This document shows, one piece after another, positions 5,974 through 22,076 of a DNA stretch of 64,000 nucleotides. Every line of letters starts with the position of its first letter. Positions within the stretch are counted from its first letter, which is position 1. Below the pieces are notes generated by a model, which saw only the letters and a program-made list of their open reading frames with translations, was not told the origin of the DNA and made no database searches. This DNA is from Gaiellales bacterium (GTDB taxonomy: Bacteria > Actinomycetota > Thermoleophilia > Gaiellales > JAICJC01), in the NCBI GenBank assembly GCA_035473255.1, contig DATIOK010000055.1:1924-65923 (forward strand), in the 5' to 3' direction. The position numbers were made by a program, and so were the translations under genes.

Positions 5974-7333
5974 GCCACCACTCCCGGAAGCTCTGCGGGG
6001 CAACGGCGGGCAGATCGCGCCCGGCCGTCCACGCCCTCATCGGGCCGGCGCCGGCCACGCGCGCGGGCAGCACGCGCGCCAGCCGCTGCGCCCGCCGGTA
6101 GCGGCCGGCGTCTGCAAACAGCCACGCCAGCGTGCGCATCGCCCGCCGCTCGGCTCCGCGCTTGGGCGTCAGGCCGCGCAGATGCACCAGCACGCGCGGG
6201 ATGTCGATCTTGACCGGGCACACCTCGTAGCAGGCGCCGCATAGGCTGGAGGCGTAGGGCAGGCTGGCGGCCGCGCCGATGCCCTCGAGCTGTGGCGTCA
6301 GGATCGCCCCGATTGGCCCCGGGTAGATCGATCCGTAGGCATGTCCGCCGGTGCGCTCGTAGACCGGGCACACGTTCAGGCATGCCGAGCAGCGGATGCA
6401 GTGCAGCGCCTCGCGCCCGACCGCGTCGCGCAGCACGTCGCTGCGGCCGTTGTCGAGCAGGACGACGTGCACTTCGCCGGGGCCGTCGCCGGGCGTGACG
6501 CCGGTCCAGAGCGAGGTGTAGGGGTTCATGCGCTCGCCGGTGGAGCTGCGCGGGAGCAGCTGCATGAACACGGCCAGGTGCTCGAAGCGGGGCAGGAGCT
6601 TCTCGATCCCGACCACACTGATCAGCACCTCCGGAAGCGTGGTGCACATGCGGCCGTTTCCCTCCGACTCGAGCACGACCAGGGTGCCGGTCTCGGCGAT
6701 CGCGAAGTTGGCGCCGCTGATGCCGACGCGGGCGCGCAAGAACCGCTCGCGCAGGTGGATGCGGGCCGCCTCGGCCAGCGCAGCGGGATCGTCCGACAGG
6801 TCGTCGGGGCCGATGGTGCGCCGGAGCAGGTCGCGGATCTCGGTGCGGTTGCGGTGGATGGCCGGCACCAGGATGTGCGACGACCAGTCGCCGTCGAGCT
6901 GCAGGATCAGCTCCGCGAAGTCGGTCTCGAGCGCCTCCACTCCGCGCGCCGCAAGCGCGTCGTTGAGCCCGATCTCGTCGGTCGTGAGCGACTTCACCTT
7001 GACCACCTCATGCTCGCCGTGGTCTGCGACGATGCCCGCGACCAGGTCGTTGGCAGCGTCTCCATCGGCCGCCCAGTGCACGGTCGCACCGGCCTCGGTG
7101 GCCGCCCGCTCGAACTCGACCAAGTAGGTGTCCAGGTTGGCCATCACGTCGCGCTTGATCGCCGCACCGGCCTCGCGCAGCTGCTGCCAGTTGTCAAGCT
7201 CGTCAACGACTGCGGCCCGCTTGGCACGGATCGTGCGGGTGGCGTGGCCGAGGTTCCGCCGCAGCTGCGTGTTTCGCAGCTCCACGTGCGCGGCCTGCGG
7301 GAAGGTGGCGCCGCCGCGCCTGGCGCTGCTCAC
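5957..7333 (-). CDS. lutB: Lactate utilization protein B (Fe-S)
   Basis: KVKSLTTDEIGLN, ETDFAE, SHILVPAIH, CIRCSACLNVCP, SSLCGACYEVCPVKI; start GTG 7333. Confidence 0.93.
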   Translation of the reverse strand: MSSARRGGATFPQAAHVELRNTQLRRNLGHATRTIRAKRAAVVDELDNWQQLREAGAAIKRDVMANLDTYLVEFERAATEAGATVHWAADGDAANDLVAGIVADHGEHEVVKVKSLTTDEIGLNDALAARGVEALETDFAELILQLDGDWSSHILVPAIHRNRTEIRDLLRRTIGPDDLSDDPAALAEAARIHLRERFLRARVGISGANFAIAETGTLVVLESEGNGRMCTTLPEVLISVVGIEKLLPRFEHLAVFMQLLPRSSTGERMNPYTSLWTGVTPGDGPGEVHVVLLDNGRSDVLRDAVGREALHCIRCSACLNVCPVYERTGGHAYGSIYPGPIGAILTPQLEGIGAAASLPYASSLCGACYEVCPVKIDIPRVLVHLRGLTPKRGAERRAMRTLAWLFADAGRYRRAQRLARVLPARVAGAGPMRAWTAGRDLPAVAPQSFREWWHERRP

Positions 7334-8001
7334 GTCGCCGCCAGGATCTCGGCCAGGTGCAGGGTGCGCAGCGGCGAGCCGCGCCGCGACAGCCCGCCGC
7401 CGATCTGCATCAGGCAGGAGTTGTCGACGGCGGTGACGGCCTCCGCGCCGCTGCGCTCGATGGCCGACAGCTTGTCGTCGAGCATCGCCATCGACACCTC
7501 CGCGTTCTTGACCGCGAAGGTACCGCCGAAGCCGCAGCACTGATCGGCCTCGTCGATCTCGACCAGTTCCAGGCCCTCGACGGCGGCCAGCAGCCGGCCG
7601 GGCCCGTCCCCCACCCGCAGCGCGCGCAGCGAGTGACAGGTGGGGTGATATGCGACGCGTGCCCGGTACCGGGCGCCGACGTCCTCGACCCCGAGCACGC
7701 CGGTCAGGAACTGCGACAGCTCGTGCACCGGCAGGCCCGGGGCGTGCTCCAGCACGTGGCCGGCGCACGAGGCCGACGGGGTCACGATCGCCTCTGCGCC
7801 GTCGAACACCCGCCGCATCCGCGCCGCCAGCTCCAGCCCCTGCTCGCGGTAGCCGCTGTTCATGTGCATCTGCCCGCAGCAGGTCTGCTCCGGGCGGAAC
7901 TCGACGTCGTGCCCGAGCCGCTCCAGCAGCTCCACCATCGCCCTGCCGGTCTGCGGGAACAGTGTGTCGTTGAAGCAGGTGATGAAGACCGAAACTCTCA
8001 C
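7330..8001 (-). CDS. lutA: Lactate utilization protein A (CCG domains)
   Basis: FITCFND, QTCCGQ, YHPTCH, CCGFGGTF; start GTG 8001. Confidence 0.93.
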   Translation of the reverse strand: MRVSVFITCFNDTLFPQTGRAMVELLERLGHDVEFRPEQTCCGQMHMNSGYREQGLELAARMRRVFDGAEAIVTPSASCAGHVLEHAPGLPVHELSQFLTGVLGVEDVGARYRARVAYHPTCHSLRALRVGDGPGRLLAAVEGLELVEIDEADQCCGFGGTFAVKNAEVSMAMLDDKLSAIERSGAEAVTAVDNSCLMQIGGGLSRRGSPLRTLHLAEILAAT

Positions 8002-8028
8002 GGCCCGGTCACATCCGAGCAAGGCCCG

Positions 8029-9363
8029 TTAGTAGATCTCGACGTATTCGTTTCGTTCCCAGTCGGTGACGTGGTCATCGAAGCGGGACAGCTCGTGGCG
8101 CCGCATCACGCCGTATGCGGTGACGAAGTCGTCGCCCAGGGCGCCGGCGATCCGCACGTCCGCCTCGAGCGCCTCCAGCGACTCGCGCACCGAGGTCGGC
8201 AGCTTCGTCCGCGACTCGTCCTCCTCGGCCGGCGGATGCGCGGCCGGCTCCAGCTCGAGGCCGTCCTCGATCCCGTTCAGCCCGGCCGCCAGGATCGCCG
8301 CTCCCACCAGGTAGGGGTTCGACAAGCCGGTGGGAGCGCGGTGCTCGATGTGGCGCGACTCGGTCGTGCCGCCCTTGATCCGGATCAGCGCCGAGCGATC
8401 CTCCAGCCCCCAGGACACGTTGGTGGGGCTGAACGTGTGCGTGCGGCGGCGCTTCATGCAGTTGACCGTCGGAGCGAGCAGCGCATAGGTGGAAGCTGCG
8501 TGGCGCAGGTTGCCGGCGATGAAGCTGCGGCATGCGGCCGAGATCCCGGCCTCGTCCGACGCATCGCCGAACGCGTTGCCACCATCGGCGACATTCAGCA
8601 GGGACACATGCGTGTGCAGCCCCGAACCGGCCGAGTCGGCGAACGGCTTGCTCATGAACGTTGCCGTATAGCCGTTCATATGGGCGAGCTCCTTGACCGC
8701 GTTCTTGAACGAGAAGCAGCGGTCGGGGCCGCCCATGCCGCGCAACGGCAGGCACGGCAGCTCCCACTGCGAGCCCGCGTACTCGCAGTTGGCCGTGATC
8801 ACCTCGAGGCCGTAGGCGTTCAGCTGCTCGACCAGCTCCTGGATGAACGGCACGTACGTGTTCCGCGTGACGTTGAAGATGTGGTAGCCCTCGAACAGCA
8901 GCTCCTGGTCGGCGGTCAGCAGGTAGAACTCGGGCTCGTAGCCGATCAGCGGCTCGTAGCCGAGCGCACGCGCGCGCTCCAGCTGCTTGCGCCAAACCCG
9001 GCGCGGCAACGCCTCGAGCGGGGTGCCGTCAGCCCACGTCGAGTCGCAGATCCAGCGCGCGGTGGCCTCGCGCCAGGGCACCACCGCGGCCGTATCCAGA
9101 TCGGGCAACAGCAGCTGATCGCCGTATGCAACCTCCTCGTGATAGAGCGTCCCACCCACGACATCCGACCTGCTGTCCAGTACAGCAACGCCGCCGTACA
9201 TGTTCAGCCCCGACTCGGCGTAGCCGTAGGCGCGCTCGATCGGCACCATCTTGGAACGGCTGGTGCCGTGCATGTCGGGCAGCTCGAACCGCACGAAGCG
9301 GATCCCCTGGGCGCGCCATCCGTCGAGCACCTGGGCGGCGCCGGTCGTGGTGTCAGTGGCCAC
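8029..9363 (-). CDS. Glutamine synthetase family protein, probably a gamma-glutamyl-amine ligase (PuuA/GmaS-like)
   Basis: GYEPEFY, QWE, TFMSKP, GSGLHTHVSL, NRS-type EDRSALIR, IEHRAP; AAGGAGG RBS. Confidence 0.88.
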   Translation of the reverse strand: MATDTTTGAAQVLDGWRAQGIRFVRFELPDMHGTSRSKMVPIERAYGYAESGLNMYGGVAVLDSRSDVVGGTLYHEEVAYGDQLLLPDLDTAAVVPWREATARWICDSTWADGTPLEALPRRVWRKQLERARALGYEPLIGYEPEFYLLTADQELLFEGYHIFNVTRNTYVPFIQELVEQLNAYGLEVITANCEYAGSQWELPCLPLRGMGGPDRCFSFKNAVKELAHMNGYTATFMSKPFADSAGSGLHTHVSLLNVADGGNAFGDASDEAGISAACRSFIAGNLRHAASTYALLAPTVNCMKRRRTHTFSPTNVSWGLEDRSALIRIKGGTTESRHIEHRAPTGLSNPYLVGAAILAAGLNGIEDGLELEPAAHPPAEEDESRTKLPTSVRESLEALEADVRIAGALGDDFVTAYGVMRRHELSRFDDHVTDWERNEYVEIY

Positions 9364-9384
9364 CTATCCCCTCCTTCCCCACGC

Positions 9385-10167
9385 TCACCCTGACGGGGGC
9401 TCGGGGGTTCCGTTGTCCCAATGGCGAACCTGCAACCCGCGCGACGCCAGCTCACGCTCGAGTCCGGCAGCTCGACCAGCATCGCACACGCAGAGCACGC
9501 CGCCCTGGCGTCCGTCGTCACGACGGAGCGCCGCCGCGAAGCGCGACGCCGGCTGCAGGTGAACGCCGCCGCCCAGCGCCGGGTACGTGTCGCGGACAGT
9601 GACGACGGCGCCGCCGCGCCCGCGCTGAACCGCCACCGGATTGACGAAGTGACCCACCGCCCAGTCCGCCGCCGGGGCGTCGTCGGCGCCGGTGTCGAGG
9701 TGGCGCTGCACCTGCCCGCGATCCGCGGACGCGCCCCACAGCGCGCCGGTGTCGATGTTTGCGATCAGCGGCATCTGCGCGTCCAGCGAGACCAGATCGG
9801 CCGCCGTCTCGGCCGTCCACGGGCCGGCCACCGGCACCGCCGCCAGGCGGCCGCTCGACAGGTGCTCGATCGCGGTCGCCAGCCCCCGCCCCGACGTGCC
9901 GGACTGAGGCCTAGGCGCGAACGGCAGGTCAAGGCGGTAGTCCAGCCGCGACTCGACGCCCGCGAGCGGCGGTGGCTCCCCGCCCTCCGGCAGCAGCGTG
10001 CCCGACTCCAGCGCCACCAGATCCTGGTCAATCGCGTCCAGGCCGGCCGCGGTCAGCACCAGCGCGCCCCAGAACGCGCCGCACAGGTTGTCCTTCTGCG
10101 GCATCAGCACGCGGTGCAGCTCGGCGGTGCGCTCGGCCCAGTCAGTGACGACGGTCGTGCTGCTCAC
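9385..10167 (-). CDS. Hypothetical protein, possible papain-like Cys hydrolase
   Basis: QKDNLCG near the N-terminus, GHFV, and RDTYP; leaderless -10 TAGTCT 6 nt before GTG. Confidence 0.6.
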   Translation of the reverse strand: MSSTTVVTDWAERTAELHRVLMPQKDNLCGAFWGALVLTAAGLDAIDQDLVALESGTLLPEGGEPPPLAGVESRLDYRLDLPFAPRPQSGTSGRGLATAIEHLSSGRLAAVPVAGPWTAETAADLVSLDAQMPLIANIDTGALWGASADRGQVQRHLDTGADDAPAADWAVGHFVNPVAVQRGRGGAVVTVRDTYPALGGGVHLQPASRFAAALRRDDGRQGGVLCVCDAGRAAGLERELASRGLQVRHWDNGTPEPPSG

Positions 10168-10197
10168 GTGGCGAGACTATCGGAATCGCCCCCGATT

Positions 10198-10224
10198 CGC
10201 CTGTGTTCAAGGTGCACACAGGCG
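10198..10224. promoter_or_regulatory. Palindromic operator candidate between divergent genes
   Basis: CGCCTGTGT-N9-ACACAGGCG; a second palindrome GAATCG-N4-CGATTC at 10183-10198. Confidence 0.55.
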
Positions 10225-10239
10225 CGATATGCTCGCGCC

Positions 10240-11943
10240 ATGGTGCGGGTCGAGGAGCACGCGCGCGATCTCGAGGCGATCTCGGCCCTGGCCTCGCGCG
10301 TCAACTCCAGCCTCGACCTCGACCGCGTGCTGGAGGAGGCGATCGCGGTCTGCGCCGAGCTGACCCGCTGCCAGGGCGCGCTCGTCTACCTGTGGGACTC
10401 CGAGCAGGAGCGGCTGGTGGTGCGGGGCGCGATCGAGGGCTACACCGAGTGGATCGGGCGCTTCTCGCTGGGAATGGGCGAGGGCCTGACCGGCTGGACG
10501 GCGCTCACCCGCCAGGCGGGGATCATCACCGAGCGCCCGCTGGAGGATGCGCGGTACCGGTACGTGCCCGACCTGAACGACGAGCGCTTCCAGTCGGTGG
10601 CGACGGTGCCGGTGGTGGGCCGTTCCGGCCAGCTGCTGGGGGTGCTGACCCTGCACACCGAGGCGCCGCACGAGTTCAGCGAGTCCGATGTGACGATGCT
10701 GGAGACGATCGCCAGCCTCGTCGCAGGCGCGGTCGAGAACGCGCAGCTGCACGAGCGGGCGCTGCGCAGCGTGGACGTGTTCCGGCGGCTGGCCGACCTC
10801 TCGCACCGGATGACCTCGGCCAGCCCCCGCGAGACCATGCACCGCCTGGCGATCGCGACCATGGAGCTGCTGGACGGCTCGCTGGCAGCGCTGCTGCGGT
10901 TCGACCCGGGACGCGACCGGCTGCTGGTGGAGGCCTGGGCGTCGAGCGACCAGGCCCGCCTGGGCGGTGAGCCGATCGCAGCGACCGGCGCCTGGGCACG
11001 GCTGCTGGGCGGCGGACCGGTCAGCATCGCGCTGGACGACGCGCCCGAGCTGGCGCTGCACCCGCGGGCGCGCTCACTGTTCGCCGCTCCGGTGCGGCTG
11101 GAGGGCCGGCCCACCGGCGTGTTGCTCTGCTTCTCGAGCGAGCGGCGCGTTCTCTCGAGCGACAACACCGAGCTGATCGCGACCATCGCCAACCACGCCG
11201 CCCTGGCGCTCGAGGAGGACCGCCGGCGCGAGGCCGCGGCCCAGCGCACGCGCGCACGGCAGCTGTTCGAGGCGCTGCGAGCCGGCGAGTCGGTGCCGCT
11301 CGACCGGCCCCACGTGGTGGTGCTGGCAGAGGCCGCCGCGGGCGGCGATCCCGACCGGCTGTGGGGCGCGCTCGTCGAACAGCTCGCGGGCAGCTTCCCG
11401 CAGACCGTGATCGACGCCCGCGCCCACGAGCTTTCCGCGCTGGTCCCGATCGCCAGCGAGAGCTGGCGGCCGCGGCTCGAGCAGCTGCTGGCCCAGACGC
11501 TGCCCGCGGGTGCCGGCGCCGGGATCAGCGAGCCCGCCCGCGACGATCCCCAGACGGCCGTGCGTCAGGCCCGGATCGCCGCCACCATCGCCCGTGCCGG
11601 CGGCAGCGGCGTGCGCAGCTACCAGACGCTGGGCGCACAACGGCACCTGTGGACGATCTCCCGCGAGGGCGACCCCGACCCGCTGGAGCTGGCGCTGGTG
11701 CGCCTGCAGGAGACGGATGCCCGCCGCGGCAGCCAGCTGTTCCGGACGCTCGAGGTCTACCTCGAGCAGCATGGCAACGCGCGCCGTTCGGCCGAGGCGC
11801 TGTTCATCCACCGCAACACCCTCCGCCAGCGCCTGCGCAGGATCGGAGAGATCATCGACCGCGACGTGCGCGAGCCGGGCAGCTGGTTCGAGCTGGGGCT
11901 GGCCGTACGGCTGGTGCGGTTCCGGAGCACCGTGCAACCCTGA
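10240..11943 (+). CDS. GAF + PucR/CdaR-type transcriptional regulator
   Basis: Two GAF-like domains; C-terminal TLEVYLEQHGNARRSAEALFIHRNTLRQRL HTH; start ATG 10240. Confidence 0.9.
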   Translation: MVRVEEHARDLEAISALASRVNSSLDLDRVLEEAIAVCAELTRCQGALVYLWDSEQERLVVRGAIEGYTEWIGRFSLGMGEGLTGWTALTRQAGIITERPLEDARYRYVPDLNDERFQSVATVPVVGRSGQLLGVLTLHTEAPHEFSESDVTMLETIASLVAGAVENAQLHERALRSVDVFRRLADLSHRMTSASPRETMHRLAIATMELLDGSLAALLRFDPGRDRLLVEAWASSDQARLGGEPIAATGAWARLLGGGPVSIALDDAPELALHPRARSLFAAPVRLEGRPTGVLLCFSSERRVLSSDNTELIATIANHAALALEEDRRREAAAQRTRARQLFEALRAGESVPLDRPHVVVLAEAAAGGDPDRLWGALVEQLAGSFPQTVIDARAHELSALVPIASESWRPRLEQLLAQTLPAGAGAGISEPARDDPQTAVRQARIAATIARAGGSGVRSYQTLGAQRHLWTISREGDPDPLELALVRLQETDARRGSQLFRTLEVYLEQHGNARRSAEALFIHRNTLRQRLRRIGEIIDRDVREPGSWFELGLAVRLVRFRSTVQP

Positions 11944-11957
11944 CCCGAGGAGACGAG

Positions 11958-12638
11958 ATGCCCGAGTTCATCTTCATGCTGACCCGAGACGACAAAACGA
12001 TCCCGGACGCTCAGGCGGTGTTTGCAGAGGTGGCAACGGTGGGCGTCACCCACGTCGGCTGCAAGGACATCGGCCTGCCCGAGGCGGAGCTGGCGGCGTT
12101 CCTGCACTCAGCCCGCTCGGCCGGGGCGACCACCCACCTCGAGGTGGTGTCCGCCACGCCCGAAGACGAGCTGCGCTCGGCCGAGGCGGCGATGCGGGTG
12201 CACCCCGACTACCTGATCGGCGGAACGCAGGTGCGGGACGTGCAGCGCATCATCGAGGGGTCGGGGATGCGCTACTTCCCCTACATCGGCCGCATCGTCG
12301 GCCATCCCTGCCTGCTGCGGGGGACGATCGACGAGATCTGCGAGGACGCGCGCCGCGTCGAGGCGCAGGGCGTGGACGGGATCAACCTGCTTGCATACCG
12401 CTACGACGGCGACGTCGCCGAGCTGGTGCGGCGGGTGTCGGAGACCACCAGCCTGCCCCTGATCTGCGCCGGCTCGGTCGACTCGGTGGCGCGGATCGAG
12501 CAGCTGTCGGCGCTTGGCGTGTGGGCCTTTACGGTCGGGACGGCCGCTCTCAACGGCGAGTTCGTGCCGGGCGGCGACCTGGCCGCCCAGCTGACGGCGA
12601 TCCTGGGCGCCGCGCGGGGTGCAGCCCACGCCGGATGA
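11958..12638 (+). CDS. Ribulose-phosphate-binding TIM-barrel protein of unknown activity
   Basis: About 226 aa alternating beta/alpha; C-terminal CAGSV and TVGTA phosphate-binding-like loops; GAGGAG RBS. Confidence 0.6.
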   Translation: MPEFIFMLTRDDKTIPDAQAVFAEVATVGVTHVGCKDIGLPEAELAAFLHSARSAGATTHLEVVSATPEDELRSAEAAMRVHPDYLIGGTQVRDVQRIIEGSGMRYFPYIGRIVGHPCLLRGTIDEICEDARRVEAQGVDGINLLAYRYDGDVAELVRRVSETTSLPLICAGSVDSVARIEQLSALGVWAFTVGTAALNGEFVPGGDLAAQLTAILGAARGAAHAG

Positions 12639-12687
12639 GCCGCGGGGCAGGCCCGGGCCGGCGGTTTCACGATACGATCAGCCGCGC

Positions 12688-13740
12688 ATGAGGGCGGCGA
12701 TATGGGACGGGCCGGGTGAGATGCACCTGGGCGAAGTCGCGGACGCGACCTGCCCCAGCGACGGCTGCCTGCTGCGCGTGACCGCCTGCGGCATCTGCGG
12801 CACCGACGTGCGTACCTTCTTCAACGGCGACCGGCGGATCCGGCCGGGCGCGGTGCTCGGGCATGAGATCTGCGGCGAGGTGCTCCAGATCGGGCCGGAC
12901 GCCGGTGCCGACCTGGCGGCGGCCGTAGGCGACGTGGTGCACGTGATCTCGACGCTCTACTGCGGCCACTGCAGCCTCTGCCGCGGCGGCAACGAGCACC
13001 TCTGCCAGAACGGCGGCCTTATGGGCTTCGACTACCAGGGCGCCTACACCGAGCTGGTCGCGGTGCCGCAGGTCGCGCTGAAGAACGTGTTCGTGCTGCC
13101 CGACGGCCTGGACTCGGTGCACGCCACGTTCGCCGACCCGCTCTCGGATGCGATCTGCGGCCACAAGGACCTTGACATCGGGCTCGAGCAGCACGTGGTC
13201 GTGATCGGCGCCGGCCCGGTCGGCACCGCGCACGTGGCGCTGGCGCTGGCGCAGGGCGCCGACCTGGTCTACCTGCTCGAGACCTCGGCCGGCCGCCTGG
13301 ATCTGGCTCGCGGCGTGCTGAACGACGCGAACGTGCGCTACGTCGACACCACCGGCATCGATCCCGTGCAGTTCATCAAGGACGAGACCGGCGACGGAGC
13401 CGACCGCGTGATCGTGGCCTGCTCGAACGTGCAGGCGCAGGAGCAGGCCATGGAGATGGCGGCGCCGCGGGGCCGGGTGCTGTACTTCGGCGGGCTGCCG
13501 AAGGGCACGACCACGATCGCCTTCCCCTCCAACGTGCTGCACTACCGCGAGGTGGCGGTGCTCGGCAGCTACGCCTCGCGACACCGCGACCAGGTGCAGG
13601 CGCTGGAGATGCTGCGCCGCAACACCCACAACATCCGCGGGGTCGTGTCGGATGTCGTCTCGCTGGACGACACCGCGGCGGCCTTTCAGCGCATCCGCTC
13701 GGGTGAGGCGCTGAAGGTGGTCGTCACCCCGAACGGCTGA
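12688..13740 (+). CDS. Zn-dependent alcohol/polyol dehydrogenase (MDR family)
   Basis: CGICGTD, GHE, structural Zn CGHCSLCRGGNEHLC, GAGPVG. Confidence 0.92.
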   Translation: MRAAIWDGPGEMHLGEVADATCPSDGCLLRVTACGICGTDVRTFFNGDRRIRPGAVLGHEICGEVLQIGPDAGADLAAAVGDVVHVISTLYCGHCSLCRGGNEHLCQNGGLMGFDYQGAYTELVAVPQVALKNVFVLPDGLDSVHATFADPLSDAICGHKDLDIGLEQHVVVIGAGPVGTAHVALALAQGADLVYLLETSAGRLDLARGVLNDANVRYVDTTGIDPVQFIKDETGDGADRVIVACSNVQAQEQAMEMAAPRGRVLYFGGLPKGTTTIAFPSNVLHYREVAVLGSYASRHRDQVQALEMLRRNTHNIRGVVSDVVSLDDTAAAFQRIRSGEALKVVVTPNG

Positions 13741-13743
13741 CGC

Positions 13744-15231
13744 GTGGAGCTGGTCTGCGGCATCGACGTCGGCTCGCAGGGGTCATGCCTGTCGGTGTTC
13801 GATGCGGGCGGGGAACGGCTGGCCACCACGTACCAGCCGCACCCGCTGCGCTATCCGCGGCCGGGCTGGGTGGAGCAGGACCCGCGCGACTGGCGGGCGG
13901 CGCTGGTGAACGGGTTCCGCGACCTGTCGGCACGGGTGAACCTGCGCCGCGTGCGGGCGATCTCGTTCGGCTCGCAGCTGGACGGGCTGGTCTGCGTCGA
14001 TGCCAACGCGCAGCCGGTGGGCCCGGCGATCATCTGGATGGACCGGCGTGCCGACCCGCTCTGCCGCCAGGCCGAGGCCCGGGTCGGCGCCGACGAGTGG
14101 TACCGGCGCTCGGGCTGCAACCTGGACGGGTCGCACGTGGCCGCGAAGCTGGCCTGGGTCGCGCAGGAGCGCCCCGACGACTACGCGCGCACGGCACGGG
14201 CGCTGCTTCCCGGCTCCTACATGGTGCGCGTTGCCTGCGGAGCCGACGCGGTCGACCGCTCGAATGCGTCCTCGACGATGCTGCTCGATCCGGACACCGG
14301 CAGCTGGGACACCACCCTGCTCGGCGCGTTCGGCATCGACGTCGGGTTGCTGCCGCCGGTCGTATCGGCCGATGCGGTGCTCGGTACCGTCAGCTCCGGC
14401 TTCGCCGACGCCACCGGGCTTGGCGAGAAGGCGCTGGTGATCTGCGGCTGCGGCGACGAGATGGCCGCCACGCTGGGCGCCGGCCTGGCCGAGCCGGGCG
14501 CGGTCTGCGACGTGCTCGGCACCGCGGAGCCGGTGTGCGCCGTCAGCGACCGGCCGCTGCGTGACCCGGGGCGCGTGGCCGAGTGCCACCCCCACGCCGC
14601 GCCCGGCCGCTGGCTGCTCGAGAACCCGGGCTGGGCGAGCGGCGCCAACTACCGCTGGTTCCGCGACGAGCTGGGCGGCGGCGCCGACTACGAGGCTCTC
14701 AACCGGGCGGCCGAGGCGGTGCCGGCGGCCAGCGAGGGGCTGGTGTTCCTGCCCTGGATGGGCGGTGCCATGGCGCCCCGCTGGGAGGCGGACGCACGCG
14801 GCGCCTGGTACGGCCTGACGCCGGCGCACGGACGCGGCCACCTGGTGCGGGCGCTGCTCGAGGGCTCGGCCTACGCCTTGCGCGACGTCGTCGAGGCGAT
14901 CACCGCGGCCGGCCTCGGCTGCCAGCGCGTGGTCTGCGTGGCCGGCGGCGCGCGCTCGGCCCTGGTGCGTCAGATGCGGGCCGACGTGACCGGGCTGCCG
15001 GTCGGCTACAGCGAGGACGTCGAGACCACCTCCCGGGGGGCCGCGATGCTGGCCGCGGCGGGCGGCGAGCTGCACGCGGACGTTCCCGCCGCCGCAGCCG
15101 CGATGTGCCGGCTGGCGTCCGAGCAGCACCATCCCGACCCGGATGCGGCGGCCGCCTACGAGCAGGGCTACCGCCGCTACCGGCTGCTGTTCGACGCGCT
15201 GGCGCCCGCCTTCGCCGACCTGGCACGGTGA
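13744..15231 (+). CDS. FGGY carbohydrate kinase (xylulokinase-like)
   Basis: GIDVGSQG, WVEQDP, IIWMDRRA, CGDEMAA, RALLEG, GGARS. Confidence 0.92.
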   Translation: MELVCGIDVGSQGSCLSVFDAGGERLATTYQPHPLRYPRPGWVEQDPRDWRAALVNGFRDLSARVNLRRVRAISFGSQLDGLVCVDANAQPVGPAIIWMDRRADPLCRQAEARVGADEWYRRSGCNLDGSHVAAKLAWVAQERPDDYARTARALLPGSYMVRVACGADAVDRSNASSTMLLDPDTGSWDTTLLGAFGIDVGLLPPVVSADAVLGTVSSGFADATGLGEKALVICGCGDEMAATLGAGLAEPGAVCDVLGTAEPVCAVSDRPLRDPGRVAECHPHAAPGRWLLENPGWASGANYRWFRDELGGGADYEALNRAAEAVPAASEGLVFLPWMGGAMAPRWEADARGAWYGLTPAHGRGHLVRALLEGSAYALRDVVEAITAAGLGCQRVVCVAGGARSALVRQMRADVTGLPVGYSEDVETTSRGAAMLAAAGGELHADVPAAAAAMCRLASEQHHPDPDAAAAYEQGYRRYRLLFDALAPAFADLAR

Positions 15232-15240
15232 GCGGCAGGG

Positions 15241-15284
15241 TGTGCAGCCTGCACATCGCGCACCGGGCGGCGAACGCGTAAGGT
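15241..15284 (+). promoter_or_regulatory. Internal promoter for the glxBCD-BMC operon
   Basis: Perfect palindrome TGTGCAG-C-CTGCACA (15241-15255) and -10-like TAAGGT (15279-15284), 7 nt before ATG 15292. Confidence 0.5.
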
Positions 15285-15291
15285 CGCACGC

Positions 15292-16206
15292 ATGTGCGGC
15301 ATCGCCGGATTCCTTGCAAAGCGTGACGGCGTCGACGTCGCCGCCACGCTGACCGCGATGCTCGCCGCGCTGCGCGGCCGCGGGCCGGACTCGACCGGCA
15401 TGTCGCTCTACGGCGCGCCCTTCCAGGGCGACCTGGTGGCCTCGGCCTGGGCCGGCGAGGCGGGCGGCGAGGCCACGCGCGGGGCGGTCTCGGACGGCGT
15501 CTCGAAGGCCGGGTTCGAGCTGTCCGACCAGCAGTACCGAGACGGCTACTGGCGGCTGGGGCTGGCGAACGGCGGCGACGGCGACGTCGCGGCGTTGGCC
15601 GATGCGATCGAGCGCAGCGCACCCGGCGTGCGGGTGTTCTCGGTCGGCACCTCGCTGGAGTTGCTCAAGCACACGTCCGACGCCCGCGAGCTGGCGCAGC
15701 GGTTCGGCGTGCTGGGATCGACCTACAGTCACGCGATCGGCCACGCCCGGATGGCGACCGAGTCGCGCGTCGACGTGAACCACTCGCACCCGTTCTGGGC
15801 GCGGCCGTTCCCGGACGTGACCGTCGTCCACAACGGCCACGTCACCAACTACTACAAGAACCGGCGCCTGTTCGAGATGCGCGGCCACCGTTTTCAGACC
15901 GGCAACGACACCGAGTTCGTGGCGGTGTACCTGGCCGACCGGATGGCGGCCGGCGTGCCGCTGGACGAGGCCGTGCGCGACTCCATCGACGACCTGGACG
16001 GATCCTTCACCTACCTGGTGTCGACCGCCGATGGCTTCGGCGTGGCGCGCGACCGCTTCTCCACCAAGCCCTGCCTGGTCGCCGAGACCGACGACTGGGT
16101 GGCCGTCGTCAGCGAGGGCATCGCCCTGGCCGAGGCGTTCGGCGACGGCGCCGACTTCGACACCTACGAGCTGGCGGGCGGCGAGGCGCGGGCATGGACA
16201 CGCTAG
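15292..16206 (+). CDS. glxB: Class II glutamine amidotransferase subunit, N-methylglutamate synthase A-like
   Basis: N-terminal MCGI, RGPDS, HARMATES, HSHPF, VHNG, DTE; first gene of a GATase/GXGXG/FMN trio. Confidence 0.88.
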   Translation: MCGIAGFLAKRDGVDVAATLTAMLAALRGRGPDSTGMSLYGAPFQGDLVASAWAGEAGGEATRGAVSDGVSKAGFELSDQQYRDGYWRLGLANGGDGDVAALADAIERSAPGVRVFSVGTSLELLKHTSDARELAQRFGVLGSTYSHAIGHARMATESRVDVNHSHPFWARPFPDVTVVHNGHVTNYYKNRRLFEMRGHRFQTGNDTEFVAVYLADRMAAGVPLDEAVRDSIDDLDGSFTYLVSTADGFGVARDRFSTKPCLVAETDDWVAVVSEGIALAEAFGDGADFDTYELAGGEARAWTR

Positions 16207-16904
16207 CGCCGGCCACGCTGGACGCACACGGCCTCAGCACCCGCGAGATCAACGAGCGCCTGCGGGAGCTGTTGGAGGACGGCGCCGGGCCGGTGGACGT
16301 GCTGCACCCGGGCTCGCGGCACAGCCTGGCGGTGGGATTTCTCGACCACCCGGGCGCGGCCATCCGGTTCCGCGGCGACGTCGGCTACTTCTGCGGCGGC
16401 CTCTCCGACGGACTGGACGTTGCCATCGACGGCAACGCCGGCTGGTCGCTGGGCGCCGACATGATGGACGGCAGCATCGTGGTGGGCGGGAACAGCGGCA
16501 GCTCGACCGGAGCATCGATGCGCGGCGGTCTGGTGGTCGTCAAGGGAGACGCGGGCGCGCGGTCGGCGATCGCCGGCAAGGGCGGCACGCTGGTGATCGG
16601 CGGCTCGACCGGCTACATGTCCGGGTTCATGAACCAGCGCACGCGGCTGGTGGTGTGCGGTGACGCAGGGCCCGGGTTCGGCGACTCGATGTATGAGGGG
16701 GAGCTGTTCTGCGGCGGCCGCATCGCCGAGCTGGGCTCGGACACGGTCTGCGAGCCACCGTCCGCCGAGGAGCTGGCCTGGCTGGCCGACCTGTGCCGCG
16801 GCCACGGCCTGGCGCCCGCCGGCGAGTGGCAGAAGGTACGCTCGGCCGGGAAGCTGTGGCGCTACGACAAGAAGGAGTTCTCGATCTGGCGGGACGCGCT
16901 GTGA
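16194..16904 (+). CDS. glxC: GXGXG-repeat (GltB C-terminal-like) subunit, N-methylglutamate synthase B-like
   Basis: Beta-helix glycine repeats (GNAGWSLG, GNSGSSTG, GDAGARS, GDAGPGFG). Confidence 0.88.
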   Translation: MDTLAPATLDAHGLSTREINERLRELLEDGAGPVDVLHPGSRHSLAVGFLDHPGAAIRFRGDVGYFCGGLSDGLDVAIDGNAGWSLGADMMDGSIVVGGNSGSSTGASMRGGLVVVKGDAGARSAIAGKGGTLVIGGSTGYMSGFMNQRTRLVVCGDAGPGFGDSMYEGELFCGGRIAELGSDTVCEPPSAEELAWLADLCRGHGLAPAGEWQKVRSAGKLWRYDKKEFSIWRDAL

Positions 16905-18196
16905 TCGAGCATCCGCCCCGCCCCAGCCACGTCTGGTCGGAGCAGACGCTGGCGGACATCCGCCAGAAGGCCGAGCTCGGGCGCTACGTGATGGGCGCAT
17001 TCTCGACCACCCGCCGCGTGCCCAACTTCGACGACCTCACCTTCATCCCGTGCACGCTGTCGCGGGTGCCGCTGGAGGGCTACCGCGAGCGCTGCCAGAC
17101 GCGCACCGTGCTGGGAACCAGGGCCGCGAACCCGGTCGTGCTGGAGACGCCGATCGCGATCTCGGGCATGAGCTTCGGAGCGCTGTCGGCGAACGCGAAG
17201 GAGGCGCTCGGCCGCGCGGCGTCGCAGGTCGGCATCTCCACCACCACCGGCGACGGCGGCATGCACCCGCGCGAGCGGGCGGCATCGAAGACGCTCGTGT
17301 ACCAGGTGACGCCGAGCCACTACGGCAACAACCCGCACCACATGGCCGAGGCGGATGCGGTCGAGATCGTGGTCGGCCAGGGGGCCAAACCCGGCACCGG
17401 TGGCGTGCTGCTCGGTTTCAAGGTGTCCGACGAGGTGGCCGGCATGCGCGACCTGCCGCCCGGCGTCGACCAGCGCTCGCCGGTGCGGCACCCCGATTTC
17501 CTGGGTGCTGACGACCTGCGCCTGAAGATCGAGGAACTGCGCGAGACCACCCGCCACCGGGTGCCGATCTGGGTCAAGCTGGGCGCCTGCCGGGTGTTCG
17601 ACGACGTGCGGCTGGCGGTCAAGGCCGGCGCCGACGTGGTCGTGATCGACGGTCTCGAGGGCGCGTCGGCGGCCTCGCCGCTGCTGCTGTTCGACCATAC
17701 CGGCGTGCCCACGCTGGCGGCGGTGGTCGAGGCGCGCGAGGCGCTGATCGACATCGGCGCTTACGGCGACGTGCAGATCGTGATCGCCGGTGGCATCCGC
17801 AACGGCGTCGATGCCGCCAAGGCGCTGGCGCTGGGCGCCGACGCCGTCTACATCGCCACCGCTGCGATGATCGCGCTCAACTGCAATGCCCCGCTCTACG
17901 AGGAGGACTACGCCAAGCTGGGCGTGACGCCGGGCACCTGCCGGGAGTGCCACACCGGCCTCTGCCCTGTCGGGGTCACCACACAGGACCCGGAACTGAT
18001 GGCGCGGCTGGACGTAGACTCGGCCAGCGAGCGTGTGGTGAACTTCCTGAACGCCATGACCATGGAGATCCAGATGCTGGCGCGGGCCTGCGGAAAATCG
18101 GACGTGCACAACCTGGAGCCCGAGGATCTGCGCTCGCTGACGCTCGAGTGCGAGGCGATCACCGGGGTGCCTCTGGTGGGGCGGATCCAGCGGTGA
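16901..18196 (+). CDS. glxD: FMN-binding glutamate synthase family subunit, N-methylglutamate synthase C-like
   Basis: MSFGALS, TTGDGG, GQGAKPGTGG, GGIRNG, and CRECHTGLCPVGVTTQDP Fe-S motif; GTGA coupling to glxC. Confidence 0.9.
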   Translation: MIEHPPRPSHVWSEQTLADIRQKAELGRYVMGAFSTTRRVPNFDDLTFIPCTLSRVPLEGYRERCQTRTVLGTRAANPVVLETPIAISGMSFGALSANAKEALGRAASQVGISTTTGDGGMHPRERAASKTLVYQVTPSHYGNNPHHMAEADAVEIVVGQGAKPGTGGVLLGFKVSDEVAGMRDLPPGVDQRSPVRHPDFLGADDLRLKIEELRETTRHRVPIWVKLGACRVFDDVRLAVKAGADVVVIDGLEGASAASPLLLFDHTGVPTLAAVVEAREALIDIGAYGDVQIVIAGGIRNGVDAAKALALGADAVYIATAAMIALNCNAPLYEEDYAKLGVTPGTCRECHTGLCPVGVTTQDPELMARLDVDSASERVVNFLNAMTMEIQMLARACGKSDVHNLEPEDLRSLTLECEAITGVPLVGRIQR

Positions 18197-19989
18197 AGGA
18201 GTTCGTCACCGCCGACGACATCCGCGCGTTGGCCGAGCAGGGGGAGCGGGAGCTGCTGGTGCGCGAGCACACGACGCTGACCGACGCGGCGCTCGACGCG
18301 GCCCGGATGCACGGCGTGCGGTTGGTGGAGGGTGGCGCGACGTCCCAGGCGCAACCCGCCGGCGACGTGGTGGCGGCGCTGCCGGTGACGCCGGGTGGGC
18401 TGCCGGCGCCGGCGCTGGCGGGGCTGGTGCGCCAGCAGGCGGCGGCCGGGCGGCGGGCGCAGGGCGGCTCGCGGCCGTCGGCGCCGGCCGGGGAGCCGAT
18501 CGAGGGCCTGCCCGACATCGGCTCGCTGCAGTCGAAGCTGCTGATCGACGGCGCGTGGAGCGACGCGGCCGGCGGTGAGACCGTGCCCACGATCGACCCG
18601 GCCACCAACCGCACGATCGTGGACGTGGCGGCGGCCGGACCCGACGACATCGACCGGGCGGTGCGCGCCGCGCGCGACGCGCTGCCGGCCTGGCGCGACA
18701 TGGCGCCGGAGCAGCGGTCGCGGATCCTGCTTCGGATCGCGGAGCTGATCGAGGCCGACCGCGACCGGCTGGCGCAGATCGAGTCGTACGACGTGGGCAA
18801 GCCGATCCGCGAGGCGGCGCTGGTCGACCTGCCGGCCTGCTGGGACCCGTGGCGCTTCTACCAGGGGCTGGTGCGCGTGATCGACGGGCGGGTGCTGGCG
18901 ATGCCGACCAGCTCGCTCGACTACGTGCGCAAGGAGCCGATGGGCGTGGTCGGCATGATCATCCCCTGGAACTTCCCGCTGCACATCGCCTGCCGCAAGG
19001 GCTCGGCGGCGCTGGCGGCCGGCAACACGGTGGTGCTGAAGGCGCCCGAGCTGGCGCCGCTGACGTGCCTGGAGCTGGGACGGATCGCGCTGGAGGCGGG
19101 GCTGCCGCCGGGAGTGCTGAACGTGGTGCCGGGGCTGGGCGCGACCGCCGGCGCGGCGCTGGCGGAGCACCCCGGGGTCGACAAGATCGCGTTCACGGGG
19201 TCGACCGTGACCGGGCGCACGGTGATGCGGGCGGGGGCCGGCACGATCAAGCGGGTGTCGCTCGAGCTGGGCGGCAAGTCGCCGTCGATCGTGTTCGCCG
19301 ACGCCGACCTGGAGCGGGCCGTGATCGGATCGGTGTTCGGCATCTACCTGGCGCAGGGGGAGGTCTGCTCGGCTGGGTCACGGGTGCTGGTGGAGCGGCC
19401 GGTCTACGACGAGTTCGTGCGGCGGTTCGCCGACAGGGCGGCCGGTATCCGCGTCGGCATGCCGCACCGCTGGTCGACGCAGCTGGGGGCGCTGATCAAC
19501 GAGCGGCAGTGCCAGCGCGTGTACGAGTACGTCGAGATCGGGAAGGCCGAGGGCGCGACGGTGGTGGCCGGCGGCGTGCGGCCGGCGGATCCGGAGCTGG
19601 CCGGCGGCAACTTCATCGAGCCCACGATCTTCGCAGGCTCAAACGACATGCGGATCGCGCAGGAGGAGATCTTCGGGCCGGTGGTCGTGATCGTGCCGTT
19701 CGACGGCGAGGACGAGGCGGTGCGGATCGCGAACGACGTGCGCTACGGGCTGGCGGCCGGGATCTGGACGAGCGACGTCGGGCGCGCGCACCGCGTGGCG
19801 CATAGGCTTGAGGCCGGGTCGATCTGGGTCAACCAGTACGGGGTCTACCCGTCGGAGGCGCCGTTCGGCGGATACAAGGAGAGCGGCACCGGCTACGACC
19901 TGGGGCTGGAGTCGCTGAGCGAGTACCTGGAGACCAAGAACATTCACCTCAACATCGGAACTGACACCCTCGACTGGTACGGGTCCTAA
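18193..19989 (+). CDS. NAD-dependent (non-acylating type) aldehyde dehydrogenase with N-terminal BMC-associated extension
   Basis: [46 protein letters not shown]; about 115-aa extension before the ALDH core; GTGA coupling to glxD. Confidence 0.92.
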
Positions 19990-20003
19990 AGGAGGACGCA
20001 GAC

Positions 20004-20300
20004 ATGGATGGAGCACTGGGGCTGATCGAGACGCGCGGGCTGGTGGCCGCAATCGAAGCGGCGGACGCGATGGTGAAGGCGGCCAGCGTCGAGATCCTGG
20101 GCCGCGAGTCGATCGGCGGCGGCTACGTGACCGTTGCCGTGCGTGGCGACGTGGGTGCGGTGAAGGCGGCGATCGACGCCGGCGCGACGGCGGCCAAGAA
20201 GACCGGCGAGCTGGTGTCGGCGCACCTGATCCCGCGGCCGCACGAGGACGTGATGAAGGTGCTGCCGGCGGCGGTGGCACCGGCCGCGGCGAAGCGCTGA
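20004..20300 (+). CDS. BMC hexamer shell protein (BMC-H, EutM/PduA-like)
   Basis: [32 protein letters not shown]; AAGGAGG RBS. Confidence 0.97.
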
Positions 20301-20302
20301 GG

Positions 20303-20683
20303 ATGCCGGCGATCCGCATCCTCTGCGACGGCGAGGTGATCGAGGCCGAGCTGCTGGTGGACGACGCGCCGCGCGTGTGCGGCTACATCCGCTCCATCCT
20401 GCCGTTCGAGTCGACGATGGTGCACGCCAAGTTCGCGGGCGAGGAGACGATCGTCATGGTGCCGTTCTTCGCAGAGCAGGAGAATGGCAAGACCGACGTT
20501 GTCGCGGGAGACATCGGCTACTACCCGGGGCGGCAGACGCTGTGCCTGTTCTACGGCGAGACGCAGCCGTTCGGCGAGGTCAGCTACGTGGCGCGGGTGC
20601 GGAGCAACCTGGAGGGGCTGGCGCGGTGCGGGCGCAAGATCCTCGAGTCGGGATCGCTGCCGGTACGGATGGAGCTGGCCTGA
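20303..20683 (+). CDS. DUF3830/cyclophilin-like protein
   Basis: LPFESTMVHAKFAGEE, EN...GDIGYYPG, LFYG resemble DUF3830 and the N-terminal half of cucumopine synthase/McbB (recall). Confidence 0.7.
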   Translation: MPAIRILCDGEVIEAELLVDDAPRVCGYIRSILPFESTMVHAKFAGEETIVMVPFFAEQENGKTDVVAGDIGYYPGRQTLCLFYGETQPFGEVSYVARVRSNLEGLARCGRKILESGSLPVRMELA

Positions 20684-21159
20684 TGGCGTACGTGTCGGCG
20701 GCGATGCTGGTGGAGGAGCTGCGCGAGTTCACGGTCGACCGCTGGATCGGCGAGCCGCCGGACGTGGCGGCGCTGCGGCGGTTCACGCTGCCGCCGATGG
20801 GCAACCTGCCGTGCGTTCTGTACTGCAACTTCGATCTGTTCTGGGCCGGGGAGCAGCTGCAGGTGGTGCGGCAGGCGGCGCTGGACGGCGACCTGCGGCT
20901 GCCGGAGCTGTGCTCGGTGACGGCGATGCTGCTGGAGCGGACGGCGGCGCGGACGGCCAAGTGGGAGATGCCCGAGACGGTGCAGCTGCTGCGGCGGGCG
21001 GCGTCGATCCTGGCCGAGTGGCGGCCGGACACGTCGCGCGAGTATGCGGTCGTGATCGAGCACCTGCTGATGGCGCTGAACCGGATACAGGCGGCAGTGG
21101 ACGCGATCATTCCCTGGAACGACCTCGACGGCGCCGTGCGACTGCGGCCGCAAAGCTAG
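20683..21159 (+). CDS. Helical-bundle protein resembling the cucumopine synthase C-terminal domain
   Basis: LVEELREFTVDRWIGEPPDV and SREY...ALNR....IPW patterns; TGATG coupling to the DUF3830 gene. Confidence 0.65.
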   Translation: MAYVSAAMLVEELREFTVDRWIGEPPDVAALRRFTLPPMGNLPCVLYCNFDLFWAGEQLQVVRQAALDGDLRLPELCSVTAMLLERTAARTAKWEMPETVQLLRRAASILAEWRPDTSREYAVVIEHLLMALNRIQAAVDAIIPWNDLDGAVRLRPQS

Positions 21160-21168
21160 GAGGACGAG

Positions 21169-21414
21169 ATGCAGCGATGCCATGTCACGGGAAGCACGGT
21201 GGCGACGCAAAAGGCGGCCGGGCTGACCGGGTTCAGCCTGCTGACGGTGACGCCGGTGGGGGGCGGCGGGGAGCTGGTGGCGGTGGATCTGGTGGGGGCC
21301 GGAGAGGGCGACATGGTGCTGGTCGCGATGGGCGGGGCGGCGCGCGAGACGGAGCAGACGCGCGGCGTACCGACCGACGCGGCGGTTGTCGCGATCGTGG
21401 ATCCGTCCCGGTAA
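21169..21414 (+). CDS. BMC pentamer vertex protein (BMC-P, EutN/CcmL family)
   Basis: VTGSTVATQK, VAVDLVGAGEGDMVLV, GGAAR, DAAVVAIVD; AGGAGG RBS. Confidence 0.95.
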   Translation: MQRCHVTGSTVATQKAAGLTGFSLLTVTPVGGGGELVAVDLVGAGEGDMVLVAMGGAARETEQTRGVPTDAAVVAIVDPSR

Positions 21415-21416
21415 AG

Positions 21417-22022: not shown

Positions 22023-22041
22023 CCGTCGCTCGGCCTGCTCC

Positions 22042-22076
22042 CGGGTGATAGAGAGGTGCCGGGCACCGTCGTAACA
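22042..22076 (+). repeat. Left 35-bp REP-like repeat
   Basis: CGGGTGATAGAGAGGTGCCGGGCACCGTCGTAACA, with internal palindrome GGTGCC-G-GGCACC. Confidence 0.92.

Follow-up and report, generated by a model that had tools for sequence, protein, structure and literature searches.

What would a polyol-type dehydrogenase, a sugar kinase and a small barrel protein of no assigned family be doing together at the head of an operon for a bacterial microcompartment (BMC)? We consider this question for a stretch of 64,000 nucleotides (hereafter the window), taken from a contig of about 71% GC (DATIOK010000055.1) of a Gaiellales metagenome-assembled genome. A preliminary description had placed a polyol dehydrogenase, an FGGY kinase and an orphan barrel at 11958-15231, directly upstream of the BMC operon, and the open reading frame (ORF) listing, codon-position GC and Pfam/NCBIfam searches indeed give three intact genes there, all on the + strand and in the order barrel, dehydrogenase, kinase. 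The trio does head the same-strand array, but the wording "directly upstream" is too close, as the first shell gene (20004) begins 4.8 kb further on, behind three Glx-like genes and an aldehyde dehydrogenase (AldDH) gene. As discussed below, the trio did not originate as an accessory of the BMC; it is an autonomous, GntR-regulated module that is found more often beside RMM1-type BMCs or without a BMC. We favor, tentatively and with somewhat less than even confidence, a reading in which polyol-type oxidation and phosphorylation are followed by cleavage of a C-C bond by the barrel, which would yield triose phosphate and a short aldehyde or amino-aldehyde.

The arrangement of the three genes is not a chance one, because the same order recurs in six other genomes of the genus at 95 to 97% protein identity and is found rearranged in many more genomes. 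Gene order was compared by tblastn over 31 fetched loci and over 80 loci from a species-level genome collection, the latter found with a close barrel alignment and biased to relatives of at least 59% identity; these 80 loci span Gaiellales, Solirubrobacterales, other Thermoleophilia and Dormibacterota. The window's own order, which we call (a), is present in seven genomes of the genus at 95 to 98% protein identity. Arrangement (b), seen in genome G009 and in genus g3, has the zinc-dependent dehydrogenase (Zn-ADH) and the FGGY kinase at the head of the same BMC operon and the barrel at its far end, next to x23096, a small conserved gene, and an APC-family permease. By far the commonest is (c), where an FGGY-GntR-Zn-ADH set is divergent from the barrel and adjoins the permease, with or without x23096; this divergent set, with its own GntR regulator, is kept in nearly all of the 80 loci, and the permease stands beside the trio almost always. 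Its company varies: at 37 loci (c) lies beside a complete RMM1-type BMC set (class III aminotransferase, acylating AldDH, BMC-T, BMC-P and BMC-H shell proteins, APH kinase, SDR, GntR and FmdA), at 10 beside a BMC-less, Puu-like γ-glutamyl/transaminase set (class III aminotransferase, AldDH, C26-type GATase and sometimes a glutamine-synthetase-like (GS-like) ligase), and at 4 beside LutABC with a permease and aminotransferases. The window's type of microcompartment, characterized by DUF3830 and AldDH genes, carries the trio at 12 loci. Moreover, the window permease is 70 to 84% identical to that of the trio-carrying RMM1-type loci, and LutABC genes flank the trio in the window lineage and in BMC-less relatives. 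Given that the unit adjoins an APC permease and three mechanistically different amine-removal systems, an amine-linked substrate is suggested, and the unit is also present once (L129) without amine genes nearby. Among 61 related genomes, the barrel was found in 27 and BMC shell genes in 35; in four genomes the barrel is present without a shell match, and the completeness of these assemblies is 55 to 78%.

Arrangement (d), from three genomes of genus g2 that are 91 to 100% complete, has the permease, x23096, GS-like and DUF6885 genes divergent from an arm that begins with Zn-ADH and continues with a DeoC/LacD aldolase, the FGGY kinase, a second ADH-like gene, AldDH, BMC-H and DUF3830, among others. 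In these genomes, a barrel homologue is absent genome-wide, and the Glx-like genes are absent from the locus; the second ADH-like gene is quinone-oxidoreductase-like (L032:5796-14011, L033, L034). As they are missing in the g2 variant, the Glx-like genes are not a constant part of the DUF3830/AldDH microcompartment, and the "glutamate-amine" genes that the preliminary description had used as context do not hold for this variant. Zn-ADH and FGGY, on the other hand, are present in all complete instances of this microcompartment (arrangements a, b and d), and three different gene orders have the trio inside the BMC operon, with the barrel found only in (a) and (b) and substituted in (d). Thus, the proposed tie to the BMC and the amine genes is sound for the dehydrogenase and the kinase and is in keeping with the three amine-removal systems alongside, but the trio is not specific to this BMC.

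Several neighboring observations belong here. The contigs of two genomes (G010 and G026) break at the position of the trio, so that absence is indistinguishable from an assembly gap. In G010, which is 95% complete, one contig (C79, L155) ends at 62723, about 50 nt into the barrel gene, and another (C3, L031) breaks inside GATase2, so that the gap corresponds exactly to the trio; barrel and kinase orthologues were not found elsewhere in that assembly, and strain heterogeneity may be involved. Two RMM1 loci of another Gaiellales family (L040, L041) are without the trio, and so is a third type of BMC locus from other Gaiellales families (L036-L039), in which GATase2, GXGXG, GltB-like and GS genes are followed by BMC-P/BMC-H, an acylating-type AldDH and BMC-T, and which is also without DUF3830. 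The x23096 gene always accompanies the permease at RMM1-linked and DUF3830/AldDH BMC loci, and a second copy, 47 to 52% identical, exists in g3. Finally, split tblastn matches (frameshifts) occur in GS-like, AldDH, GltB-like, FGGY or barrel genes of L014, L015, L030 and others, and these could be either long-read assembly errors or genuine pseudogenes.

The assignment of the dehydrogenase and the kinase to their families is solid. The dehydrogenase has ADH_N and ADH_zinc_N domains above cut-off (71.4 and 61 bits), the CGTD...GHE motifs for the catalytic zinc, a four-cysteine loop for the structural zinc and a GAGPVG NAD fold. Its nearest characterized family is L-threonine 3-dehydrogenase (161 bits, against at most 122 for others; 133 bits with the Pyrococcus horikoshii TDH), and its scores are far below the Tdh cut-offs (161 vs 458 for TIGR00692 and 158 vs 380 for NF003808). 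Because residue 24 or so is where the alignments to family models and to the G009 orthologue begin, ATG 12688 is the likely start, and the alternative GTG at 12619 would make the gene overlap the barrel gene by 20 nt. The kinase has FGGY_N and FGGY_C domains well above cut-off (158.7 vs 28.8 and 103.5 vs 27 bits), with an N-terminal GIDxG and central GxGD motifs in its translation. Its best family is XylB, below threshold (328 vs 380 bits for TIGR01312 and 226 vs 912 for NF011601), and its best solved relative is the E. coli xylulokinase 2itm (209 bits); one relative's kinase reaches 377 bits against the xylulokinase cut-off of 380. Likeness to XylB does not allow a substrate to be assigned to the kinase.

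The barrel is a different case. Whether searched singly or as a profile of 67 sequences against Pfam, NCBIfam and the PDB sequences, it could not be assigned to any family, and its similarity to PriA, HisA, HisF and NanE is sub-threshold and confined to residues ~150-200, which form the β7-β8 phosphate loop (His_biosynth, PF00977, 17.3 vs 23.6; NanE, PF04131/NF002231, 19.4 vs 189). Its own family, which reaches no Pfam or NCBIfam cut-off, falls into 4193 clusters when grouped at 90% identity and into 787 at 50%; the members, which include Pseudomonadota, are annotated as hypothetical or "HisA/HisF-related". An AlphaFold2 model built from the 67-sequence alignment predicts an eight-stranded (β/α)8 barrel (predicted local distance difference test, pLDDT, 97; predicted template-modeling score, pTM, 0.92), with the eight β/α units and the glycine-containing phosphate loops after β7 and β8 that define the ribulose-phosphate-binding superfamily. 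Gly34, Lys36, Glu62, Gly172 and Gly194 are invariant in 67 members down to 27% identity, and Thr9, Asp12 and Arg148, among others, are nearly so. In the model, Lys36 and Glu62 are at the C-terminal ends of β2 and β3, and Gly172 and Gly194 lie in the two phosphate loops. Lys36 is the lysine of the GCKDIG motif (residues 34-39) and may be a Schiff-base lysine.

In an exhaustive structure search, 3-hexulose-6-phosphate synthase (HPS) came first (9lj9, 3ajx; Z 21.9, root-mean-square deviation 2.4 Å over 199 residues, 15% identity), followed by PdxJ (Z 20.5) and KDPGal aldolase (Z 19.3; KDPGal and KDPG aldolases together 17.5-19.3), and then by pyruvate kinase barrels, KDPG aldolase, KGPDC (1kv8, Z 18.8), ThiE, OMPDC and RPE, the last scoring, with AlsE, 16.6-18.6. 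The matches at Z 16-22 thus span HPS, KGPDC, RPE, OMPDC, HisA, TrpF and ThiE, and Foldseek against the PDB gave only generic TIM-barrel matches (TM ~0.7). Profile similarity to HPS (24.5 bits) covers the β7-β8 phosphate loop only. Since HPS, PdxJ and KDPGal aldolase are within about 2.6 Z units, the fold alone cannot fix the reaction.

More specific hints come from the proteins to which the barrel is fused or for which it is exchanged. Members of the family occur naturally fused to PdxA (three clusters), an MGS-like domain, a cupin or a fold-type II pyridoxal-phosphate enzyme (PALP), the last with a PdxA gene immediately upstream; examples are L152:7033-9614, P0152, P0133, P0250 and P0138. The loci of the PdxA-barrel and barrel-MGS-like fusions have no informative neighbors, and most look-ups of distant members of the family fell on uninformative contigs of 1-4 kb. 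PdxA-family enzymes yield 2-oxo-3-phosphooxypropyl products (PMC9997740), and these fusions therefore suggest that the barrel acts on small keto-phosphates. As for exchanges, the three g2 genomes, in which no barrel homologue exists, have a DeoC/LacD class I aldolase exactly between the dehydrogenase and the kinase. Its nearest relatives are MJ0400 (143 bits) and LsrF (91 bits), whose Schiff-base lysine aligns with its DHG and V-I-K-T motifs. Neither the window's genome nor any locus with a barrel contains this aldolase, and 2 of 301 genomes of the class were found to have it. Such a distribution is what a non-orthologous replacement of the barrel would leave, although only one event is seen. 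In Dormibacterota and other Actinomycetota, it is the Zn-ADH that is replaced, by a protein of about 480 aa of the Fe-ADH_2 family that is distantly glycerol-1-phosphate-dehydrogenase (G1PDH)-like (L060:6542-8026, L144:10489-11952, L146:10622-12052), while FGGY, barrel and GntR are kept, often with the permease, GS-like ligase and AldDH; this exchange supports a generic step of polyol or polyol-phosphate oxidation.

From these observations we infer the order of the reactions, the C-C cleavage and the nature of the substrate as follows. The trio would be a portable catabolic module for a small hydroxylated compound, either an amine itself or a compound released from an amine, that could enter the cell through the neighboring APC permease. 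In either order, a secondary hydroxyl would become a ketone through the Zn-ADH, and a primary hydroxyl would be phosphorylated by the FGGY kinase. The barrel would then grip the phosphate with its β7 and β8 loops, and Lys36 and Glu62 would break the C-C bond next to the carbonyl, by a retro-aldol reaction or a mechanistically related decarboxylation. A compound at the level of triose phosphate could thus flow into central metabolism, and a short aldehyde or amino-aldehyde into the adjoining amine and aldehyde system, which in the window's genome may be the γ-glutamyl (GS-like) ligase, the AldDH-containing microcompartment and LutABC. Cleavage of a C-C bond is suggested because the best fold matches (HPS, PdxJ, KDPGal/KDPG aldolase and KGPDC) are enzymes that act on C-C bonds of small keto-phosphates and because a class I aldolase with a Schiff-base lysine motif replaces the barrel in g2. 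The opine or Amadori-type conjugate put forward in the preliminary description is a candidate substrate that the evidence neither favors nor disfavors.

There are, nevertheless, several points that weigh against this proposal. In the modeled structure, fold matches at Z 19-22 fail to separate lyases from epimerases, decarboxylases and synthases. The hallmark of the HPS/KGPDC branch is a metal-binding Glu/Asp and an Asp-x-Lys-x-x-Asp motif after β3, and, by inspection, the OMPDC-type D-x-K-x-x-D motif is absent after β3 of the barrel, where LEVVS is found. Known class I aldolases use a lysine on a strand other than β2, the strand that bears the sole invariant lysine of the barrel, and, to our knowledge, no enzyme of the barrel family has been characterized and none has a solved structure. 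The aldolase swap is a single evolutionary event in one genus and need not be one-for-one, as it co-occurs with the loss of the Glx-like genes and the gain of a second ADH-like gene. Furthermore, in a low-GC actinobacterium, a barrel of 36% identity lies between two class II ketose-bisphosphate aldolases, at a locus that also holds two FGGY kinases, a PfkB kinase and a sulfatase, and with these two aldolases flanking the barrel a further aldolase would be redundant. The earlier suggestion that the barrel is an aldolase or lyase is thus strengthened by the g2 swap, the aldehyde-lyase fold matches and the invariant GCKDIG lysine, and weakened by this low-GC locus. Transcript data also have to be read with care. 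Four soil metatranscriptome libraries, two of them apparently with identical data, contain contigs that match the locus at about 98-99% identity and bridge the regulator-barrel, ADH-kinase and kinase-GATase2-GXGXG junctions, but their depth is flat over the genes of both strands, so that DNA carry-over is possible; they are weak support, at most, for co-transcription and no proof of expression. Their summed depth increases 10- to 20-fold at 18723-19956, over the conserved AldDH core, most likely owing to cross-mapping of aldehyde dehydrogenases from other organisms.

The main alternative, which we regard as less likely, is that the barrel is not a lyase but isomerizes, deaminates or decarboxylates a 2-oxo-3-phosphooxypropyl compound, for instance 3-amino-2-oxopropyl phosphate. 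The kinase and the dehydrogenase would then make the keto-phosphate from a C3 or C4 amino-polyol (3-amino-1,2-propanediol or 4-hydroxythreonine), from which the barrel would yield triose phosphate and ammonia or CO2. The PdxA-barrel fusions in three clusters and the PdxA gene that abuts the barrel-PALP fusion agree with this idea, and so does the rank of PdxJ, second among the fold matches, as its ligand is this very aminoketone phosphate. It would also account for a dehydrogenase that is Tdh-like or swapped for a G1PDH-like protein, both of which belong to classes working on C3/C4 substrates, and for the constant proximity of an amino-acid/amine permease and of the aminoacetone/aminopropanol genes of the RMM1 type. 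The resemblance of the barrel to PriA/HisA, enzymes of Amadori rearrangements, could be cited too, but it concerns the phosphate loop only, and no residue-level match to the catalytic residues of PdxJ, TIM or HisA was obtained. Moreover, the class I aldolase in the barrel's place in g2 is left unexplained, and PdxA2-type enzymes decarboxylate by themselves, according to literature cited in PMC9997740.

It is less probable still that the trio is an ordinary, self-contained pentitol or tetritol unit in which the barrel is a ketose-phosphate epimerase feeding the pentose phosphate pathway. The kinase falls little short of the xylulokinase cut-off, the fold matches include RPE and AlsE, the ancestral GntR/UTRA regulator is of a type common for sugars, and both the locus without amine genes and the purely sugar-type context of the low-GC relative would fit. 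However, the linkage to the permease and to amine systems is kept in two phyla, through four gene orders and with three mechanistic types of amine system; the window-lineage genes lie with short gaps inside a BMC operon under a PucR regulator, and no sugar ABC, PTS or MFS transporter was found beside the unit in the Thermoleophilia loci examined. The same breadth of linkage makes it very improbable that only the Zn-ADH is tied to the amine systems, as a threonine or (R)-1-aminopropan-2-ol dehydrogenase that makes aminoacetone, with the kinase and the barrel engaged in an unrelated side reaction. Tdh is by far the nearest characterized family, 1-aminopropan-2-ol is decarboxylated threonine, and RMM1 loci handle aminoacetone and aminopropanol (PMC4207490), but the score is far under the Tdh cut-off, and the dehydrogenase is the least constant member of the unit, being swapped for Fe-ADH_2 or missing where the kinase-barrel-GntR core persists. 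A more ambitious reading would make the barrel family a new class of C-C lyase or deaminase for keto-phosphates or aminoketone phosphates, and the trio part of an undescribed route for small amino-polyols that feeds both RMM1-type and a new type of microcompartment. This reading is improbable as a whole, including its candidate routes, which would run from 3-amino-1,2-propanediol or 4-hydroxythreonine via 3-amino-2-oxopropyl phosphate or, alternatively, split an amino-deoxy-ketose phosphate into dihydroxyacetone phosphate (DHAP) and an amino-aldehyde.

How the module came to lie inside a BMC operon can be approached with a tree of 84 barrels, obtained by a quick search and rooted on distant Fe-ADH-linked forms, with many weak inner branches. 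The 12 barrels from BMC operons form one clade on a long stem (Shimodaira-Hasegawa-like approximate likelihood ratio test, SH-aLRT, 99), nearest to forms from Lut contexts and from Dormibacterota. Because they form a single clade, one capture of the module into the BMC operon, with loss of GntR, fits the data. In the ancestral arrangement, the GntR/UTRA regulator lies between the dehydrogenase and the kinase, and a GAF-PucR regulator takes its place in the window lineage. We also considered a derivation of the BMC-integrated trio from RMM-adjacent ones; this is unsupported, as the BMC-operon barrels are not nested among the latter.

If the trio feeds a microcompartment, where does it act? The preliminary description had suggested that the barrel supplies an aldehyde of the kind that BMCs confine, but the lack of any extension resembling an encapsulation peptide argues against production inside the shell. 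The barrel is also dispensable or replaceable within this type of BMC. Inspection of sequences and model revealed no such terminal extension in any of the three proteins: the barrel begins at β1 and stops 6-10 residues after the last helix, the match of the kinase to the XylB model starts at residue 2 and stops no more than 13 residues short of the C-terminus, and the sole possible extension of the dehydrogenase is a stretch of 23 Pro/Arg-rich residues that would exist if GTG 12619 were used and that is unconserved in G009. In contrast, the neighboring AldDH does carry an N-terminal extension. The trio thus probably lies outside the shell and acts in the cytosol rather than in the lumen, although a missing recognizable peptide is no proof of exclusion.

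The features of the locus are collected in Table 1. The barrel gene starts 14 nt past the stop codon of the GAF-PucR regulator gene, with a GAGGAG Shine-Dalgarno sequence 7 nt upstream, and the gaps inside the trio and to GATase2 are 4-61 nt; the interval 9300-16500 yielded no promoter-like or terminator-like site. The barrel, dehydrogenase and kinase genes are each single-copy in the window's genome, where their paralogues reach at most 33% identity, and the genome has a single BMC locus. An 840-aa ORF on the + strand (9421-11943) overlaps the real DUF6885 gene of the - strand (9385-10167; 224 bits), and the start of the PucR regulator is placed near 10200-10240 by codon-position GC. The IS200/RAYT-like gene has the same position in all (a) and (b) loci (L013, L014, L015, L019 and L031; 43-92% protein identity), and it has the look of a resident gene passed on by vertical inheritance, not of a recent arrival.

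Table 1. Genes of the trio and of its surroundings (positions in the window)
Feature	Position	Strand	Remarks
DUF6885, GS-like ligase, LutA-like CCG protein	7330..10167	-	divergent arm
GAF-PucR regulator	~10240..11943	+	start approximate; GAF, HTH_30; codon-position GC switch near 10200
Phosphate-binding (β/α)8 barrel enzyme (P0001)	11958..12638	+	226 aa; uncharacterized family
Zn-dependent MDR alcohol/polyol dehydrogenase	12688..13740	+	alternative GTG start 12619
FGGY-family carbohydrate kinase	13744..15231	+	XylB-like; 495 aa
GATase2 / GXGXG / GltB-like (Glx-like) genes	15292-18196	+	context, outside the trio; downstream context set spans 15292..22048
Non-acylating AldDH	18193-19989	+	long N-terminal extension
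BMC-H	20004-20300	+	first shell gene
DUF3830 and partner gene	between BMC-H and BMC-P	+	
BMC-P	21160-21414	+	
BMC-T-like gene	after BMC-P	+	
IS200/RAYT-like gene	22141-22863		between BMC-T and x23096
x23096	23096..23560	+	conserved 154-aa protein without Pfam or NCBIfam match
APC-family amino-acid/amine permease	23605..25170	+	

What is new here is a barrel family without a characterized member and the systematic tie of the module to RMM1-type and to a second type of BMC; routes composed of a dehydrogenase, a kinase and a lyase are of an already known kind. The substrates of RMM-type and of several "incomplete core" microcompartments are poorly defined, and the module, which travels with the permease of these loci in abundant and mostly uncultured soil lineages (Gaiellales, Solirubrobacterales and Dormibacterota), provides an experimental handle on them. 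Its linkage points to a hydroxylated-amine nutrient and to a new enzyme family and, as the two gene swaps and the PdxA fusions narrow the chemistry to small keto-phosphates, a modest panel of substrates could make the assignment of a function tractable. If the more ambitious reading above is true, the natural substrate of many soil-actinobacterial "aminoacetone" microcompartments would be a larger hydroxylated amine than is now assumed.

Several known systems offer points of comparison. The yiaK-S / ula route of E. coli combines the dehydrogenase YiaK, the FGGY kinase LyxK and the 3-keto-L-gulonate-6-phosphate decarboxylase SgbH/UlaD; as in the trio, a dehydrogenase and an FGGY kinase are accompanied by a phosphate-binding barrel of about 220 aa, which in that route cleaves the C-C bond adjacent to the carbonyl in the product of the kinase. 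Unlike SgbH/UlaD, the window barrel is without the signature of the OMPDC suprafamily, and its sequence, the phosphate loop aside, gives no significant match to either KGPDC or HPS; the trio also lacks the downstream pentulose-phosphate epimerases, and its context is one of amine catabolism and BMCs. HPS itself, the best structural match, is an aldehyde lyase on a keto-sugar phosphate, but the barrel is only 15% identical to it, and the HPS/KGPDC catalytic motif was not found by inspection. PdxA and PdxJ, from the vitamin B6 synthesis that depends on 1-deoxy-D-xylulose 5-phosphate, recall the barrel family through its PdxA fusions and adjacency and through the PdxJ fold match; nevertheless, the barrel has no PdxJ sequence match, the context in the window is catabolic, and PdxA is absent from the locus.

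Among systems associated with microcompartments, the fucose/rhamnose route uses an FGGY kinase and then a ketose-1-phosphate aldolase, which gives DHAP and lactaldehyde. The logic proposed for the trio is like that of the corresponding PVM/GRM5-type BMCs, in which a ketose phosphate made by the kinase is split into DHAP and an aldehyde for a BMC-associated AldDH, and the LutABC genes that flank the trio are for lactate oxidation. However, the fucose/rhamnose-type BMC systems work with an isomerase in place of a dehydrogenase, and their aldolase is of class II (PF00596) and bears an encapsulation peptide (PMC8217296), whereas the window barrel belongs to an unrelated family and has no such peptide. 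An assignment of the window to the "ACI" type of BMC was rejected, as the catalogue gives ACI as Acidobacteria-specific and with a class II aldolase (PMC8217296); the Pfam accessions of FGGY and DUF3830 are absent from the text-searchable part of its supplements. The RMM1 (aminoacetone / 1-amino-2-propanol) loci are alike in that, in most relatives, the trio, x23096 and the permease abut a complete RMM1-type set, but the BMC of the window differs in its non-acylating, extended AldDH, its DUF3830 pair, its GS-like ligase and its Glx-like genes, and the trio is not among the RMM1 components given in PMC4207490 or PMC8217296. Finally, whereas the window carries the orphan barrel and not a DeoC/LacD protein, arrangement (d), and only this variant, resembles the LsrK-LsrF pair of autoinducer-2 processing and the MJ0400/GriI-type DhnA aldolases, in that an FGGY kinase is combined with a DeoC/LacD enzyme that acts on a keto-phosphate.

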